Source of the DNA: an uncultured Desulfobacterales bacterium
GTDB taxonomy: Bacteria > Desulfobacterota > Desulfobulbia > Desulfobulbales > Desulfocapsaceae
DNA length: 64,000 nucleotides
Direction of reading: 5' to 3'
Assembly: GCA_937915545.1 (NCBI GenBank)
Contig: CALGIJ010000021.1
Coordinates: 36,815 to 100,814 of the forward strand
The notes under the pieces are model-generated. The model saw only the letters and a list, made by a program, of their open reading frames with translations, was not told the origin of the DNA and made no database searches. This document shows positions 32,654 through 38,343 of the stretch, piece after piece (positions within the stretch are counted from its first letter, which is position 1; every line of letters starts with the position of its first letter). A program made the position numbers and the translations under genes.

Positions 32654-32920
32654 ATGAGCGAAGGCAAACACCGGCACGAACACACCCATAACCACGACCA
32701 CCACCATCAGCACGAGCACCCCCACAAGCACAGCAACGAGGAACATAGCCACCCCCATCACCACCACCACAGCCACCCCCATACCTTCGCGCATGAGCAC
32801 GACCATGCCCATGAGGGCGGCAGCCATGGCCACGACCATCTGCACGAGCCCCATAACGAGGGTCCCCATGACCATGAACACCCCGAACACCACCTCGACG
32901 ACCACTTCCATAAGCATTGA
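32654..32920 (+). CDS. Histidine-rich small protein (88 aa, about 43% His), putative Ni/Co-binding or storage protein
   Basis: MSEGKHRHEHTHNHDHHHQHEHPHKHSNEEHSHPHHHHHSHPHTFAHEHDHAH... (38 His of 88 by hand count). Strong SD GGAGGA lies 7 nt upstream. Paralogue at 50649-50921. Confidence 0.75.
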   Translation: MSEGKHRHEHTHNHDHHHQHEHPHKHSNEEHSHPHHHHHSHPHTFAHEHDHAHEGGSHGHDHLHEPHNEGPHDHEHPEHHLDDHFHKH

Positions 32921-32994
32921 GCGGCGAGAAGCGGAAGCGACGGCAATGACCGTCGCCTCTCCGCGCTGAGCGGCCCACCCCGCCTGATTATTTT

Positions 32995-33046
32995 CCGAAA
33001 ACCCGAAAATATTCGACAGATATTCGGGTTTTCGGATTCGTTTTTG
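32995..33046 (+). terminator. Perfect 13-bp inverted repeat plus T-run: terminator of the His-rich gene and/or enhancer site for the downstream sigma-54 promoter
   Basis: CCGAAAACCCGAA (32995-33007) pairs with TTCGGGTTTTCGG (33023-33035). TTTTT follows at 33041-33045. The repeat lies about 100 nt upstream of the -24/-12 element. Confidence 0.45.
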
Positions 33047-33126
33047 CCGACAACCCACCCCGACGCGGAACCCTCTTGATCCATAACTTCTTGAAACCGC
33101 AAAGGTAGCTAAGAAAGCCCTGAAGA

Positions 33127-33142
33127 TGGCAGCTTTCTTGCT
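33127..33142 (+). promoter_or_regulatory. Sigma-54 (-24/-12) promoter of the PEP-CTERM gene
   Basis: TGGCAGCTTTCTTGCT is a near-perfect TGGCAC-N5-TTGCW match. It lies about 73 nt upstream of ATG 33215. Confidence 0.65.
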
Positions 33143-33214
33143 TATGTCTCCCCCAAATCTCGTTCTCCGGAGAAAATTCCGGAGGTGGTTCTGTTCGCAA
33201 CCCAAGGTATCCTC

Positions 33215-33901
33215 ATGAAAAAGCACGTCATTGCAACATTTGCGGCCGTCCTTATGCTCTTCGGGGCCAGTTCCTCGTTCGCTCTCCCCGTTAAGGGTGC
33301 AACGGTGACCATCCTCGAAGGCCCCTATGGATCTACATCTGGGGGGGAGTTTCGCATCGTCGATCAAGCTGTCAGTGACCAAGAGTGGATTGGCTTCTGC
33401 CTGGAACTGAACGAAACGTTGAACTACAACACTCCCTATACGGTGAAAAGTGTCGCCAACTTTGCAGAGCAAGGAGGAGTGGGCGGGGCTGTCGATCACG
33501 ACAACGATGACGATACACCAACACGCGATGGATTGAGCCAGAGGTCCAAATGGCTCTACTACAACTATATGTTCGGAGATTACGAGTGGTCCCGCGATAA
33601 TTCACGTAACGACGCGTCGGCTAATATCGTGCAGAACCTGCTCTGGTATTTCGAGGATGAGATGGATCTAGACCGATCTTCAGATGCCTGGCAATTTTTC
33701 AGAAATGTTTTCCGCGACCAATACAGAGCAGATCCTTCCATATCCGGAACGGTAAAGGTGCTCAACATCATGGACGGCGAAACCTTCAAACAGAGCCTTA
33801 TCGTCGGCGAACAGCAACCGGTTCCGGAGCCGGCAACCCTGCTGCTAATGGGCAGCGGCCTGATGGGCATCGTCGGTCTGGCGAGGAGAAAGAAAAAATA
33901 A
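33215..33901 (+). CDS. Secreted PEP-CTERM-anchored protein with thioester-domain-like Cys and Gln motifs
   Basis: Signal peptide MKKHVIATFAAVLMLFGASSSFA. C-terminal VPEPATLLLMGSGLMGIVGLARRKKK is a PEP-CTERM sorting signal. Internal GFCLE (Cys62) and NIVQNLLWYFEDE (Gln140). GC is visibly lower than in the neighbours. Confidence 0.85.
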   Translation: MKKHVIATFAAVLMLFGASSSFALPVKGATVTILEGPYGSTSGGEFRIVDQAVSDQEWIGFCLELNETLNYNTPYTVKSVANFAEQGGVGGAVDHDNDDDTPTRDGLSQRSKWLYYNYMFGDYEWSRDNSRNDASANIVQNLLWYFEDEMDLDRSSDAWQFFRNVFRDQYRADPSISGTVKVLNIMDGETFKQSLIVGEQQPVPEPATLLLMGSGLMGIVGLARRKKK

Positions 33902-34043: not shown

Positions 34044-35222
34044 TCACTCATCCTCCACCCCTGGATAGAACCTGGCCAGGCAGTCGGGGCAGAGGCCATG
34101 GCTGAACTCGGCCTCGGTATGGTTGCGCACATAAACCTCGACCTGGTTCCAGAAGCCCTTATCGTCGCGGATCTTCTTGCAGTGCATGCAGATGGGGACG
34201 ATGCCGCGCAGGGTCTTGACCTGCTCCATGGCCCGCCGCAGCTGGTCGTTGGCCTCCCGCAGCCTGGTCTCGGCCTCCTTGCGCTCGGTGATGTCGATGA
34301 TGGCGCTATAGGAGCCACGAACACTGCCATCCGTGGCAAAGAGCGGCGAGGCCGAGACGATGGCCCATACACTCTTCCCTTCCCTGGTACGAAAGCGCCG
34401 TTCGAAACGCTCGTCGCGCCCCTGCTGGCGCTGCTCCTGGCGACGGTGGAAATCGGCCACGTCTTCGGGGAAGAAAAAGGATTCAAAGGGCCTGCCAAGC
34501 ACCTCTTCGACCCGATAGCCGAGCATGGCGGCAAAAGAGCGGTTGGCAAAGGCGATACGATGTTCCCCGTCGAGCTGCACGATGCCCTCGCCCACCGCGG
34601 TGACGATGCGGCGGAATTTCTCCTCGCTCTCGCGCAGGGCGTCGTCGACGCGCTTGCGCTCGATGGCGATGGCCGCCATATCGGCCACCGCGGCAAGTAC
34701 CTGGAGATGGTTCTCGTCATACCGCAACGGATCACTGTAACTCTGCACGGCCATCACCCCGACCGCCCCACGCGGTGTCTTCAAGGGGGCGCCGAGCCAG
34801 ATCTCAGAGGGAGTGCAGGGCGGCACGGTCAGGCCGCAGCTCTCGCGGAAAAGGCTGATCTCCGCCCGGCGCAGCAGCATCGGCCGCTGTTCGCGGATCA
34901 CCCAGGCGCTGAGCGAGGCGGTGTTGCTGACATTGAGGGCGATCGGGTAGCAGCTGTCGACCTTGTCGACAAAATAGGGAAAGGTCAGGCTGTCGTCCCC
35001 GGGGTGGTAGAGGGCGATAAAGAAGTTTTCGGTATCGATGACCGGCGCCAGCGCCCGGTGGATGGTGGCGAACAACTCCTGCAGGGAGGCGGTGGTACTG
35101 ACCGCCTCGGCTATGGTTTGAAACACGCTGACGATGGCCTGCCAGCGCCGGTTGCGGCCGGCCTCCTCGGCAAGGCTCGCCACCTGCCGCTGCAGCTTGC
35201 GCATGGCTCTCGTTTCCCTCAT
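34044..35222 (-). CDS. GAF + PAS sensor protein ending in a Cys/His zinc-ribbon-like output motif
   Basis: N-terminal GAF-like region, then a PAS domain (FRRIVTAVGEGIVQLDGEHRIAFANRSFAAMLGY...), then the C-terminal ICMHCKKIRDDKGFWNQVEVYVRNHTEAEFSHGLCPDCLARFYP. The ATG overlaps the upstream kinase stop (ATGA). Confidence 0.85.
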   Translation of the reverse strand: MRETRAMRKLQRQVASLAEEAGRNRRWQAIVSVFQTIAEAVSTTASLQELFATIHRALAPVIDTENFFIALYHPGDDSLTFPYFVDKVDSCYPIALNVSNTASLSAWVIREQRPMLLRRAEISLFRESCGLTVPPCTPSEIWLGAPLKTPRGAVGVMAVQSYSDPLRYDENHLQVLAAVADMAAIAIERKRVDDALRESEEKFRRIVTAVGEGIVQLDGEHRIAFANRSFAAMLGYRVEEVLGRPFESFFFPEDVADFHRRQEQRQQGRDERFERRFRTREGKSVWAIVSASPLFATDGSVRGSYSAIIDITERKEAETRLREANDQLRRAMEQVKTLRGIVPICMHCKKIRDDKGFWNQVEVYVRNHTEAEFSHGLCPDCLARFYPGVEDE

Positions 35223-37492
35223 CGCGCACCTCCCCTTCCCTGCAAAGCCCGCCGTACGGCGCGGCCAAGGGATTCGAGGGTAAATGGTTTCTGGAGAAAA
35301 CAGACATCCTGGTCGATGACGCCATGCCGGGCGATGACATCGGCGGTATAGCCGGAGACGAAGAGGCTGCGTAGACCGGGATCAAGGCCCTTCAGCCGCC
35401 GCTCCAGTTCCCGGCCGTTCATCTCCGGCATGACCACGTCGGTGATGAGCAGGTCGAACCTCTCCCGCCCGCTGCCTACCAGGGCGATGGCCTCCCGGGG
35501 CGACTGGGTGGAGGTCACCTGGTAGCCCGTGGTGGTAAGGATCTCCCGGGCGAGGGCGAGCAGGCCGGCGTCGTCCTCCACCAGCAGGATCCTTTCGCCC
35601 TGCCCCTGCAGGGCTTCGCCCCCGGCACCGGCCGCCGCGCCATCCCCCTCGCCGCCACCGCGCGGGAAATAGAGCCTGAAGGTAGTCCCCCGGCCCGGCG
35701 CGCTGTGCACATCGATGAAGCCGCCATTCTGCCGCATGACCCCATAGACCGTGGCCAGGCCCATGCCGGTGCCCTTGCCGGGCTCCTTGGTGGTGAAGAA
35801 CGGCTCGTAGATCTGCGCGATGGTGGCCTCATCCATGCCGCAGCCGTTGTCGCTGACCGTCAGCGCCACATATTGTCCCGGCTGGCTCTCGGCGATATGG
35901 CGGCAGGCGGAGGCGTCGACGTCGACGTTGCAGGTTTCGAGGACGATGGCGCCCGAGGCGCCGATGGCGTCGCGGGCGTTGACGCAGAGGTTGATGAGCA
36001 ACTGGTCGAGCTGGCTGGGGTCGATCCACACCGACCACCCTCCCGCCCCACCTCGCCACTCGATGGCGATATGCTCGCCGATGAGGCGGCGCAGCATGGG
36101 CAGCATATCCTCCACCGCCTTGTCGAGATCGATGGTCTGCGGGGCGATGTTCTGCTTGCGGGCGAAAGCGAGGAGCTGGCCGACCAGGCTCGCCGAGCGC
36201 AGGGTGGTCTCCTCGACGACGCGCAGACGGTTCGCCATGGGGTCGTGGGGAGGCAACTTCATCAGGGTGAGCTGCACCATGCCGAGGATGACCGTCAGCA
36301 TATTGTTGAAGTCGTGGGCGATGCCCCCGGCGAGACGGCCCACCGACTCCATTTTCTGTGCCTGCAGAAGCATCTCGCGCAGCCGCTCCTTTTCCGTCTC
36401 GGCACTCTTGAGGTCGGAGACGTCGCGGATCATCTCGATGGCCCCGATGCGTTCCCCGGCACGATTGTAGATCGGCGCCGCCACTCCCCAGAGGTAAGCG
36501 CCCCGCCCCTGGTGGAGCGTCGGCACGAAAGATTCGGCGTGGATCGCCTGATGCTGCCGGTGCACGGAGAGATAGGCCGCCTCGCAGCGGGCGTCGGGTT
36601 GATCGAGCAGGTCGACGAGGATCGGCCGCCGTTCACCGAAAAAGGGCTCGGCATAGATATAGTCGCCCTTGCCGATGACCGCCTCTCGACCGACGCCGGT
36701 GAGCTCCTCCGCCGCCCTGTTCCAGATGACCACCCGCCGCCCGGTGTCGACGATGAAGGTGGCGTCGGGAAGGAAGTCGATGATATCGACGAGGAACTGC
36801 CTCTCGGCGGCGAGCTTTTGCTCGGTGCGCCGCTGCTCGTCGCTCTTGGCGGCGATATGCCCAACCATGTCGTTGAAGTGAGAGATGAGCCGATTGACAT
36901 CGGCATAGCGGGTCAGCGGGATGACCGTGGTGTAGTGCCCGGCAGCCACCGTCTCCATGGTGCGAAAGAACTCGTAGAAGGGCCGCTGCACGCGGCGGCC
37001 GACGAGACGGCTGACAATCACGTTGGCGACCAGCACCGCCAGGCAGACCGCCAGGGCGACGAGAAAACCGAGCCGTTGACTGGCCCTGACCGCCTCATGG
37101 CTGAAGGTGATGGTGAAGGCGCCGAGTTCCATGCCCTTCGCTTCTATAGTGCGCGAGATCGGCCTGATGCGCGACGAGGCAGCGCCCAGAGATTTCTCGA
37201 GGAGGATGCCGCCGGCGGTGGAGCTGAGCGAGATGCCGACGATCTTCTCCGAGGCGAGAAAGGTCTCGGCGATGCGCACCGCCGTCTCGTGGTCGACATT
37301 GTAGAGCGGGTATTCGAGGAGCGAGGCCAGGTCGTCGGCGGTGGCCGCCGCCTCCTGGCGCAGCTCGTTCAGCAGCGACTCGGAGATGAGCACGGTGGCG
37401 GCCACCGCCACCAACGCCATGATCGCCAGAGAGACGGCGACGATCAGCGCCTGCACCTCGCCGAGCAGGGTCTTGGGCGTGCCGAAGGCCAT
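35219..37492 (-). CDS. Hybrid histidine kinase (TM, HAMP, PAS, HisKA, HATPase_c, REC)
   Basis: H-box [36 protein letters not shown]. Receiver (ILLVEDDAG...LLITDVVMPEMNG...LQKPF). ATG 37492 lies 2 nt after the SBP stop; the ORF track's 37498 is a TTG. Confidence 0.9.
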   Translation of the reverse strand: MAFGTPKTLLGEVQALIVAVSLAIMALVAVAATVLISESLLNELRQEAAATADDLASLLEYPLYNVDHETAVRIAETFLASEKIVGISLSSTAGGILLEKSLGAASSRIRPISRTIEAKGMELGAFTITFSHEAVRASQRLGFLVALAVCLAVLVANVIVSRLVGRRVQRPFYEFFRTMETVAAGHYTTVIPLTRYADVNRLISHFNDMVGHIAAKSDEQRRTEQKLAAERQFLVDIIDFLPDATFIVDTGRRVVIWNRAAEELTGVGREAVIGKGDYIYAEPFFGERRPILVDLLDQPDARCEAAYLSVHRQHQAIHAESFVPTLHQGRGAYLWGVAAPIYNRAGERIGAIEMIRDVSDLKSAETEKERLREMLLQAQKMESVGRLAGGIAHDFNNMLTVILGMVQLTLMKLPPHDPMANRLRVVEETTLRSASLVGQLLAFARKQNIAPQTIDLDKAVEDMLPMLRRLIGEHIAIEWRGGAGGWSVWIDPSQLDQLLINLCVNARDAIGASGAIVLETCNVDVDASACRHIAESQPGQYVALTVSDNGCGMDEATIAQIYEPFFTTKEPGKGTGMGLATVYGVMRQNGGFIDVHSAPGRGTTFRLYFPRGGGEGDGAAAGAGGEALQGQGERILLVEDDAGLLALAREILTTTGYQVTSTQSPREAIALVGSGRERFDLLITDVVMPEMNGRELERRLKGLDPGLRSLFVSGYTADVIARHGVIDQDVCFLQKPFTLESLGRAVRRALQGRGGAR

Positions 37493-37494
37493 GG

Positions 37495-38343
37495 TCAAGG
37501 CTCCCCGGTGTACCTGGCGACAATGCCGCGGACGACGCCCTCACCCACCAGGCGATCCAGGGCCTCGGCCACGCGGTCGGCGAATTCGAGGTGCGGCGAC
37601 TTGCGCGAGAAGGCCAGAAAGAGGTCTGTTTGCCGGTTAGGCTGGTATGCGGTTGGCTCCACCGCCCCGCCCAGCCCCAGCCGCGCGATATCGTAGGAGA
37701 GGTTCGGCTCGGTGCCGATGATCAGGTCGAGACGCTTTAAAGCCAGCGCCTGGAGCAGCTGGGTCTCGGTGGAAAGGCCTTTCTTGTCGAGGCTTGTATC
37801 CGAATCGAAGGGCTCGAAATAGGCGGAATGCAGGGAATAGCCGATGGTCTTGCCACGAAGATGCTCGTAGATGGCGATCTCTCCGCCCCTGCCCCCAGTG
37901 GTGAAAAAACGCGGCCGCACGGCGCAATAGCTGGTGCCGACATAGCGCATGAAGATTTCGCGCTCCGCGGTGCGGGCGACGCCGCTGAGCAGATCGACCT
38001 GGCCGCTGCGCATCATCTCCAGGGCGCGGGCCCAGGGGTGGCGCTCGATGAGGATCTTCACCCCGAGGCGCTCTTGCAGAGCGGCGACCACATCGATATC
38101 GATGCCGCGAAAGCCGCTTTCGCTCTGCGGGTTGTTGATGCGAAACGGCGGCCACTCCTCGGTGGCCATGCGCAAGGCCGGCGCTGACTCGGCGGGAACA
38201 GCTCCAACGCAGTACGGCACCGCCGCCGCGGCCAGCGCGGCAAGGAGCCAAACCACCGTGGCGAGCCTTCGCTCTCCGTTCTTCCCGGCGCCCATACCCC
38301 CTCCCCTTGGCCGTACCAGCCGCGGCGAGCCGCTTCTCTCCAA
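37495..38343 (-). CDS. Periplasmic solute-binding protein, family 3 (amino-acid-ABC-type SBP), probably a co-sensor for the downstream kinase
   Basis: Signal-like LATVVWLLAALAAAAVP, then an SBP_bac_3 pattern (WPPF...GIDIDVV...RLDLIIG). Tightly coupled to the kinase gene. The start could be ATG 38295. Confidence 0.8.
   Translation of the reverse strand: MERSGSPRLVRPRGGGMGAGKNGERRLATVVWLLAALAAAAVPYCVGAVPAESAPALRMATEEWPPFRINNPQSESGFRGIDIDVVAALQERLGVKILIERHPWARALEMMRSGQVDLLSGVARTAEREIFMRYVGTSYCAVRPRFFTTGGRGGEIAIYEHLRGKTIGYSLHSAYFEPFDSDTSLDKKGLSTETQLLQALALKRLDLIIGTEPNLSYDIARLGLGGAVEPTAYQPNRQTDLFLAFSRKSPHLEFADRVAEALDRLVGEGVVRGIVARYTGEP

Follow-up and report, generated by a model that had tools for sequence, protein, structure and literature searches.

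Does a Gram-negative bacterium carry, on a protein bearing an exosortase sorting tag, the internal thioester chemistry known from Gram-positive adhesins, and if so, which residues would make the bond? The question is raised by a 64,000-nucleotide stretch of contig CALGIJ010000021.1 from an uncultured Desulfobacterales bacterium (the whole stretch analysed, hereafter called the window). A gene on its forward strand, at 33215-33901, encodes a 228-aa protein that an initial annotation had read as a PEP-CTERM surface protein with a thioester domain (TED) in which Cys62 would be bonded to Gln140. Structure, profile and motifs support the unusual combination of a TED with a PEP-CTERM tag in a Gram-negative, while the residue assignment does not hold. 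We regard the core of the protein as a genuine relative of the 'chemical harpoon' TEDs so far described only in Gram-positives, joined to a PEP-CTERM tag, and its bond-forming glutamine should be Gln193.

Thioester domains were discovered in 2010 and have been studied as host-targeting virulence adhesins. Walden et al. (2015) described them as found 'exclusively in Gram-positive bacteria' (PMC4450167); they were still described as Gram-positive in 2018 (PMC6194298) and were placed in Firmicutes and Actinobacteria in October 2026 (Sci Adv; PMC13685950). A 2022 adhesin survey added new TED clusters, none of the PEP-CTERM kind. Our own literature search, made mostly without subscription journals, found no article linking a thioester domain or covalent-adhesion chemistry to PEP-CTERM or exosortase. 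Most PEP-CTERM families are, to our knowledge, without a known function.

The core of the protein is predicted to adopt a thioester-domain fold

The open reading frame (ORF) is real: full-length homologues share its MKK start, and its product comprises a putative signal peptide, a core of about 176 aa and a PEP-CTERM tag (Table 1). An AlphaFold2 model built from 148 family sequences, most of which stand for different clusters at 50% identity, reached a mean predicted local distance difference test score (pLDDT) of 89.8 and a predicted template modelling score of 0.83. A Foldseek search of the PDB with this model, a comparison that the initial annotation had proposed, returned TEDs at every one of ranks 1-15, namely SfbI (5a0l), the N-terminal TED of Cpa (4c0z) and CpTIE (5a0g/5a0d), with probabilities of 0.89-1.00 and target-normalised template modelling scores of 0.48-0.57; the probability at rank 16 was 0.09. 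The picture was unchanged for a weaker model built from 10 sequences, and no hydrolase or transglutaminase fold appeared among the PDB matches to either model.

A class I TED consists of a barrel of six strands with a bundle of three helices (Miller et al., PMC6194298), and the modelled topology fits this class. Strands are predicted at residues 30-35, 45-50, 57-62 (with Cys62 at its end), 74-85, 179-187 and 190-199 (Gln193), and helices at 109-120, 133-146 (Gln140 and Trp144) and 157-167. The cysteine thus lies on the third strand, the Gln/Trp pair on the second helix and the other Gln on the last strand, and an 11-residue linker (168-178) joins α3 to the following strand. This linker takes the place where a β-sandwich insertion of about 75 residues, between α3 and strand P, would be expected in a class II TED; the absence of the insertion from the model is class-I-like and speaks against a class II assignment.

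Sequence profiles point to the same domain. When a profile of the 148 sequences was run against PDB sequences, the top four matches were the TEDs 5a0d and 5a0g (both CpTIE), 5dcq and 5a0l (SfbI), and the three TED motifs, called C, T and Q below, aligned residue to residue between profile and structures. The initial annotation had also pointed to an LYNGYP-like stretch, and in the alignment with solved TEDs this stretch, WLYYNYMFG, falls opposite V(I)YNGYPSN. Less deep queries against the PDB gave only noise, both single-sequence phmmer searches with the 228-aa protein and with the family member P0012 and a search with a 10-sequence profile; the TEDs emerged only with the 148-sequence profile. 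Among curated models, Pfam TED (PF08341) matches residues 60-156 of the protein (15.4 bits, E = 0.026) and 37 of the 148 members at E<=1, any other non-tag family matching at most two. In P0012, which aligns full-length to our protein (phmmer, E = 1e-38), the Pfam TED score of 27.8 bits lies above the 22-bit cut-off. NF012162, 'thioester-forming surface-anchored protein', matches 10 of the 148 members with a best E-value of 4.7e-7.

Several observations weigh against this interpretation. The Foldseek superpositions have root-mean-square deviations of 5.5-8.4 Å, pairwise sequence identity to the solved TEDs is 11-14%, and the E-values of the 148-sequence profile on PDB TED sequences are weak (0.17-1.1). 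The 228-aa protein itself falls below the Pfam gathering threshold of 22 bits and scores 20 bits on NF012162 against a cut-off of 40. The model also predicts no α0 helix in residues 86-108, between strand D and α1 (pLDDT 69-83), which is a class-II-like trait. Low identity and weak profile E-values are what one might see if an unrelated small β/α surface protein mimicked TED motifs by chance. Known TEDs, however, are only about 12% identical to one another (PMC4450167), and here the three motifs follow TEDs in order, in the secondary-structure elements that carry them and in spacing. The Pfam TED model moreover matches a quarter of the members and passes its threshold in one, and the structure search lists TEDs alone before its probabilities fall off steeply. 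Chance mimicry is thus a very improbable account. Because structure, profile and motif evidence agree on TED, the evidence favours homology over convergence, and the core of the protein is in all likelihood a TED homologue. Given the missing α0 helix and the missing insertion, the model suggests that it may best be described as the minimal core common to class I and class II.

Gln193 rather than Gln140 aligns with the bond-forming glutamine

Three TED motifs were defined by Walden et al. (PMC4450167). The C-motif, [YFL]CΦζ, lies in a strand and carries the bond-forming Cys, and the weak Q-motif, ΦQζΦΦ, also in a strand, carries the bond-forming Gln (PMC4450167). The helical T-motif, TQxxΦWΦxζ, provides a Gln and a Trp; both hydrogen-bond to the backbone of the Cys, and neither is required for the bond to form (PMC4450167, PMC6194298). 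In every solved TED the last strand is where the bond-forming Gln is found (PMC4450167, PMC6194298), and the two bond partners are stated to be the sole universally conserved residues of TEDs (PMC6194298).

All three motifs can be located in the 228-aa protein, in the same order as in TEDs. Cys62 (TGC, 33398-33400) lies in WIGFCLELNE at the end of β-strand C, and Gln140 (CAG, 33632-33634) in VQNLLWYFEDE, both codons being as initially annotated. The latter segment fits the helical T-motif position by position (V for T, Q, N, L, L as Φ, W, Y as Φ, F, E as ζ), and the HMMER alignment sets VQNLLW opposite TQRAVW of CpTIE and TQNAIWYY of SfbI. A second glutamine, Gln193 (CAG, 33791-33793), had been overlooked. 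It lies in KQSLIV, for which the family consensus is [AK]-Q-[SD]-[QLM]-[LI]-[VI], and this segment aligns to YYQNLL of CpTIE. The CpTIE Gln opposite Gln193 stands at position 176 of the 5a0d chain and 178 of the 5a0g chain, both of which correspond to residue 267 (construct Ser92-Pro277), and Gln267 is the crystallographically defined thioester Gln of CpTIE (PMC4450167). Cys62 and Gln193 are 131 residues apart, compared with 129 for the bonded pair in CpTIE, 152 in SfbI and 153 in PnTIE; across the family the Cys-Gln spacing has a median of 126 and a range of 101-152, and in solved class I TEDs it is 129-153. Because it aligns to CpTIE Gln267, lies on the last strand and keeps the canonical spacing, Gln193 should be the bond-forming residue, and from the alignment to solved thioester pairs we infer that it is close to Cys62.

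The assignment initially made, a half-size domain in which Cys62 would form its thioester with Gln140 about 78 residues away, has to be weighed against this. Gln140 is invariant in all 148 sequences, and by homology it would directly adjoin Cys62, as the α2 Gln of solved TEDs hydrogen-bonds to the Cys backbone. The T-motif is also kept more strictly here than in Gram-positive TEDs, in which its Gln and Trp are not invariant (PMC4450167). Yet the bond is formed by the last-strand Gln in all solved TEDs, with the α2 Gln and Trp dispensable, the segment around Gln140 corresponds to the T-motif at every position and in both alignments, and a separate, equally conserved Q-motif is found at the canonical place and spacing. 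Nor is the domain half-size: because its Cys-Gln spacing matches that of CpTIE and its core of about 176 aa compares with a CpTIE construct of 186 aa, it is a full-size class-I-like TED. A Cys62-Gln140 thioester can accordingly be set aside as highly improbable, and the inference of a minimal version or of convergence, which had been drawn from the short spacing, falls with it.

The confusion is easily traced. The motif given in the initial annotation, 'Φ-Q-x-Φ-Φ-W', is the central-helix T-motif, so that two TED motifs had been merged into one. On our analysis Gln140 is a helper-motif residue that would adjoin the thioester, not the bond partner. Adjacency of the Cys62 sulphur and the Gln140 side-chain carbon, which had been suggested as a test, would give a misleading positive, because the helical Gln adjoins the thioester in real TEDs without forming it. 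The trap thereby corrected is that an invariant helical Gln resembles the partner residue but is not.

Conservation across the family supports the predicted thioester

Searched exhaustively with phmmer, 1.84 billion cluster representatives yielded 406 proteins at E<=1e-10, so the family spans at least 406 clusters at 50% identity; nearly all of these proteins are 210-250 aa long. In the alignment of 148 sequences, Cys62, Gln140 and Trp144 are by column count the sole invariant core residues, and the Cys and Gln named initially are retained together in every aligned sequence, far beyond chance. Gln193 is present in 146 of 148 by column and in all 148 once two alignment slips (KKQDVL, VSQDLL) are corrected. 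Other positions are nearly invariant: Phe61, Glu147 and Asn184 (147/148 each), Asp105 (146/148), Glu64 and Glu149 (145/148 each) and Glu67 (140/148). Cys62 is the lone cysteine of the mature protein in 117 of 148 members, and with most members having a single mature Cys a disulfide role for it was rejected.

Some features of these motifs and of this conservation pattern are likewise unfavourable. Gln193 is preceded by Lys or Ala, neither of them clearly hydrophobic, which leaves the first Φ of the Q-motif weakly matched, and V or L stands in place of the T of TQxxΦW. Extra invariant acidic residues (Glu64, Glu67, Glu147, Glu149 and Asp105), Asn184 and a conserved GGEF are not known to be needed by canonical TEDs, and the chemistry could differ. 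For every member of the family, moreover, the thioester is a prediction. The core could then have the TED fold and neither form nor use a thioester, its Cys and acidic residues serving another role, for example in a Cys-nucleophile enzyme acting on exopolysaccharide or peptidoglycan, in metal binding or in non-covalent binding. The near-invariant extra residues would suit such a role, and so would the sub-threshold scores of the 228-aa protein on curated TED models. What makes it unlikely is that both bond partners are universally conserved at canonical positions and spacing, that the 148 sequences contain no conserved His or other classic catalytic partner, and that Foldseek gives no hydrolase or transglutaminase fold. 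Formation of a Cys62-Gln193 thioester by the core remains the likely outcome on the combined analysis.

The architecture of the family is uniform. Every one of the 148 members is a single-domain protein (177-283 aa) with a PEP-CTERM tag; LPXTG models match members weakly, via the hydrophobic tail. The Q-motif precedes the PEP motif by a median of nine residues. Also conserved is G43-G44-E45-F46 (33341-33352), the last part of the A-B 'specificity loop'. Because this loop end is conserved here, whereas the A-B loop is variable in Gram-positive TEDs (PMC4450167, PMC6194298), the GGEF sequence hints at a common target and not at diversified host receptors.

Named hosts are Desulfatitalea, Geobacteraceae, Syntrophotaleaceae, Smithella, Sedimentisphaerales/Phycisphaerae and Pseudomonadota metagenome-assembled genomes, so named members fall in Desulfobacterota, Planctomycetota and Pseudomonadota. 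The bacterium of the window is itself a relative of sulfate reducers; at 57-67% identity, the nearest matches to housekeeping proteins of the window come from Desulfopila and Desulfobulbaceae. Distribution is sparse and crosses phyla: the gene occurs in 9 of 301 species genomes of the host's phylum and in 10 of 201 of the phylum to which the Sedimentisphaerales genome belongs. Most genomes of those phyla carry no copy, while some hold two or three paralogues (three in the Planctomycetota genome G490; others in G301, G183 and G210). A scan of genome contigs was dominated by tag-only PEP-CTERM matches; of its 78 loci, a hidden Markov model restricted to the core accepted L011, L013 and, weakly, L016.

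Sorting tag, exosortase and proposed mechanism

The N-terminus, MKKHVIATFAAVLMLFGASSSFA, has a basic start, a hydrophobic core and a small-x-small site, with the probable cleavage site read from the letters; a signal-peptide-like N-terminus is kept in the homologues, and the model shows it as a detached helix (residues 2-16). The C-terminus, VPEPATLLLMGSGLMGIVGLARRKKK / PVPEPATLLLMGSGLMGIVGLARRKKK, scores 31.9 bits on PF07589 (cut-off 20.7) and 25.9 bits on TIGR02595 (cut-off 16), which bears out the initial description of this 228-aa ORF as a PEP-CTERM protein.

In the host genome (4.7 Mb in 41 contigs) the family is represented once, and there are about 15 further PEP-CTERM ORFs; a scan for TEDs yielded none besides this gene. 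Its sole exosortase scores 243.8 bits on PF09721, 200 bits on TIGR02602 (cut-off 105.6) and 202.4 bits on the XrtA model, just under the cut-off of 208. The exosortase locus (L010, contig C19:~550-552 kb) encodes, in this order, EpsI, this EpsH/XrtA-like exosortase and an XrtA-system polysaccharide deacetylase (TIGR03006, 388.8 bits; cut-off 276.2). The first halves of the XrtD and XrtW models give the exosortase about the same score, and the separate upstream EpsI ORF matches the C-terminal half of these fusion models. The TED gene lies outside this locus.

We think it quite likely that the protein is a stand-alone class-I-like TED, fused directly to a PEP-CTERM tag, that acts via a Cys62-Gln193 thioester. 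Judging from its sequence, it would be exported by the Sec pathway and lose its signal peptide. The core of about 176 aa is then predicted, from modelling and structure search, to fold into the six-strand barrel and three-helix bundle. By homology, the Cys62 thiol and the Gln193 side-chain carbonyl would form the thioester spontaneously with loss of NH3, and, on the pattern of solved TEDs, Gln140 and Trp144 on α2 would pack on the bond and form hydrogen bonds with the backbone of Cys62. An XrtA-like exosortase would recognise and remove the tag, as the family definition implies, and the protein would be kept at the cell surface or in the exopolysaccharide layer. There, a target nucleophile, most likely a primary amine, would attack the thioester, leaving an amide on Gln193 and freeing Cys62. 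By analogy with SfbI, Cpa and FbaB, the outcome would be covalent adhesion or matrix cross-linking. We give about even chances to the protein acting as a covalent adhesin or cross-linker. With no stalk, and with only about nine residues separating Gln193 from the PEP motif, a captured target would end up tethered at the very point of anchoring. We speculate that this target may be amines on de-N-acetylated exopolysaccharide, an attractive candidate since an XrtA-system polysaccharide deacetylase is encoded in the exosortase locus.

Genomic setting of the gene

Table 1. Coordinates of the gene, of the parts of its product and of the upstream region within the window.
Feature	Position	Strand	Basis
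Complete gene, 228-aa TED-PEP-CTERM protein	33215..33901 (stop codon included)	+	ORF and translation; homologue starts
Putative Sec signal peptide, residues 1-23 (MKKHVIATFAAVLMLFGASSSFA, then LP)	33215..33283 (33284 is the next nucleotide)	+	Sequence read by eye
TED core, residues 24-199, modelled with six β-strands and three helices	33284..33811	+	AlphaFold2 model, Foldseek, profile, Pfam TED
C-motif [YFL]CΦζ, F61-C62-L63-E64	33395..33406	+	Conservation; aligned to YCFN of SfbI-TED 5a0l; strand 57-62
T-motif TQxxΦWΦxζ, V139-Q140-N-L-L-W144-Y-F-E147, on second helix α2	33629..33655	+	Conservation, alignment, helix 133-146
Q-motif ΦQζΦΦ, K192-Q193-S-L-I196, last β-strand segment	33788..33802	+	Conservation; alignment to YYQNLL of CpTIE
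PEP-CTERM tag, residues 202-228: PVPEP motif, hydrophobic helix, RRKKK	33818..33898	+	PF07589, TIGR02595
Low-GC (53%) upstream intergenic region	32921..33214	+	Composition; terminator-like inverted repeat and T-run hairpin inside

The composition of the gene sets it apart from the window. Its GC content is 52.1% (61.6% at third codon positions), against 64.1% for the 64 kb; third-position GC is 81-89% in most flanking genes and 68% in a His-rich ORF upstream. The lowest-GC 687-nt stretch of the window begins at 33101, which agrees with the lower-GC patch initially reported. As for the horizontal acquisition suggested from that patch, the composition is anomalous, distribution is patchy and there is no synteny with relatives: the copy in a genome of the same order is 36% identical and not syntenic. 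Lateral acquisition of the TED gene is plausible for these reasons; a search around the patch for insertion scars (flanking direct repeats, tRNA, insertion sequences) found none.

The gene stands alone in the window. Upstream lie genes for TrmO and the His-rich ORF, and downstream, on the opposite strand, those for a GAF-PAS protein and a hybrid histidine kinase. Neighbours differ at every homologue locus examined, and no neighbour from the window recurs, so the hypothesis of an operon partner was rejected. The His-rich ORF (32654-32920, plus strand; about 88 aa) directly follows the TrmO-like gene and overlaps its end. It consists largely of HxH/HHHH runs (…HEHTHNHDHHHQHEHPHKH…HPHHHHHSHPH…), DNA repeats of families D1-D3 (32675-32904) underlie it, and a Pfam scan of it found no family; its product may be a metal-binding or storage protein. 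Between this ORF and the TED gene, an inverted repeat at 32994-33036 (17 nt, 94% complementary; TCCGAAAACCCGAAAAT / ATATTCGGGTTTTCGGA) precedes a T-rich run and probably serves the His-rich gene as its intrinsic terminator, in which case the TED gene would be an independent transcription unit. A 9-bp hairpin with a T-rich tail (TGGTTCTGTT, 33164-33185) lies in the presumed 5' untranslated region, 30 nt 5' of the TED start codon, where it may act in attenuation or other regulation. The TED locus and its 5' region, scanned against Rfam, gave nothing credible.

On the minus strand, the GAF-PAS protein (34044-35222) has a Cys/His-rich C-terminal tail (…CMHCKKIRDD…HGLCPDC…). The hybrid histidine kinase (PAS-HisKA-HATPase-REC, 35219-37498) lies upstream of it, and because the start of the GAF-PAS gene overlaps the stop of the kinase gene by 4 nt, the arrangement suggests that the two are translationally coupled.

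Comparison with known systems

With the class I TEDs of CpTIE (5a0g), SfbI (5a0l) and Cpa (4c0z; PF08341), the protein shares the predicted barrel and helix bundle, the C, T and Q motifs on equivalent elements, the Cys-Gln spacing and core size, a linker of about 10 residues from α3 to strand P with no class II insertion, and predicted secretion towards the surface. It differs from them in several ways. The hosts of the family are diderm (Gram-negative) environmental bacteria, the anchor is of the PEP-CTERM/exosortase and not the LPXTG/sortase type, and the domain stands single, lacking an isopeptide or ester stalk. At the level of residues, V or L replaces the T of the T-motif, whose Gln and Trp are in turn invariant, the model lacks an α0 helix, the specificity loop has a conserved end, and extra acidic residues are conserved; the protein also stays under the Pfam gathering score. 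In TIE adhesins of Gram-positives the TED is carried at the tip of an isopeptide/ester stalk with an LPXTG sortase anchor, neither of which occurs in this family.

The TEDs of class II (BaTIE, SaTIE and EfmTIE86; 6fwv/6fwy/6fx6) and the pLS20 conjugation adhesin have a similar upper-lobe fold and the same logic of C, T and Q motifs, and they too lack the α0 helix that is missing from our model. In them, however, the Gln is supplied by a seven-stranded β-sandwich insertion of about 75 residues, where this protein has its 11-residue linker, and class II structures were absent from the Foldseek matches of the model. Complement C3/C4 and α2-macroglobulin, including bacterial α2-macroglobulin, also capture nucleophiles covalently through an internal Cys-Gln thioester. 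Their fold is unrelated, their bond joins adjacent residues of a CGEQ motif, and they are large, multidomain and activated by proteolysis; our structure and sequence searches with the 228-aa protein showed no match to them.

Among substrates of the PEP-CTERM/XrtA-EpsH system, such as the Zoogloea flocculation protein PepA (NF033554) or the NCBIfam PEP_CTERM_* families, the protein is typical in its putative signal peptide, PEP motif, transmembrane helix and Arg/Lys cluster. Like them it is small, the one exosortase of its genome stands beside EpsI and an XrtA-system deacetylase, and its gene is scattered, away from the exopolysaccharide locus. The difference lies in the core, which no NCBIfam PEP-CTERM model covers; all of the approximately 14 matches are to the tag only.

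Significance

Members of the family appear in databases only as 'hypothetical protein' or 'PEP-CTERM sorting domain-containing protein', and 1 of the top 120 bears a precomputed Pfam TED label. Whether a large, unannotated family of functional diderm 'covalent adhesins', delivered by exosortase and not by sortase, has its founding example in this protein is a question on which we stand evenly divided. If so, the spontaneous chemistry of covalent adhesion would reach into diderms and into environments away from a host, among them sediments, digesters and syntrophic aggregates, and exosortase sorting would be linked with a reactive warhead. It would be among the first mechanistic handles on the function of a PEP-CTERM family. 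A very small stalk-less TED scaffold might also find use in protein ligation, in the manner of the SpyTag family. The conserved loop and the stalk-less form would suggest a common non-host target, for instance de-N-acetylated exopolysaccharide amines, and the thioester may then staple a surface protein to the matrix of a biofilm or floc, or to partner cells in syntrophic aggregates.

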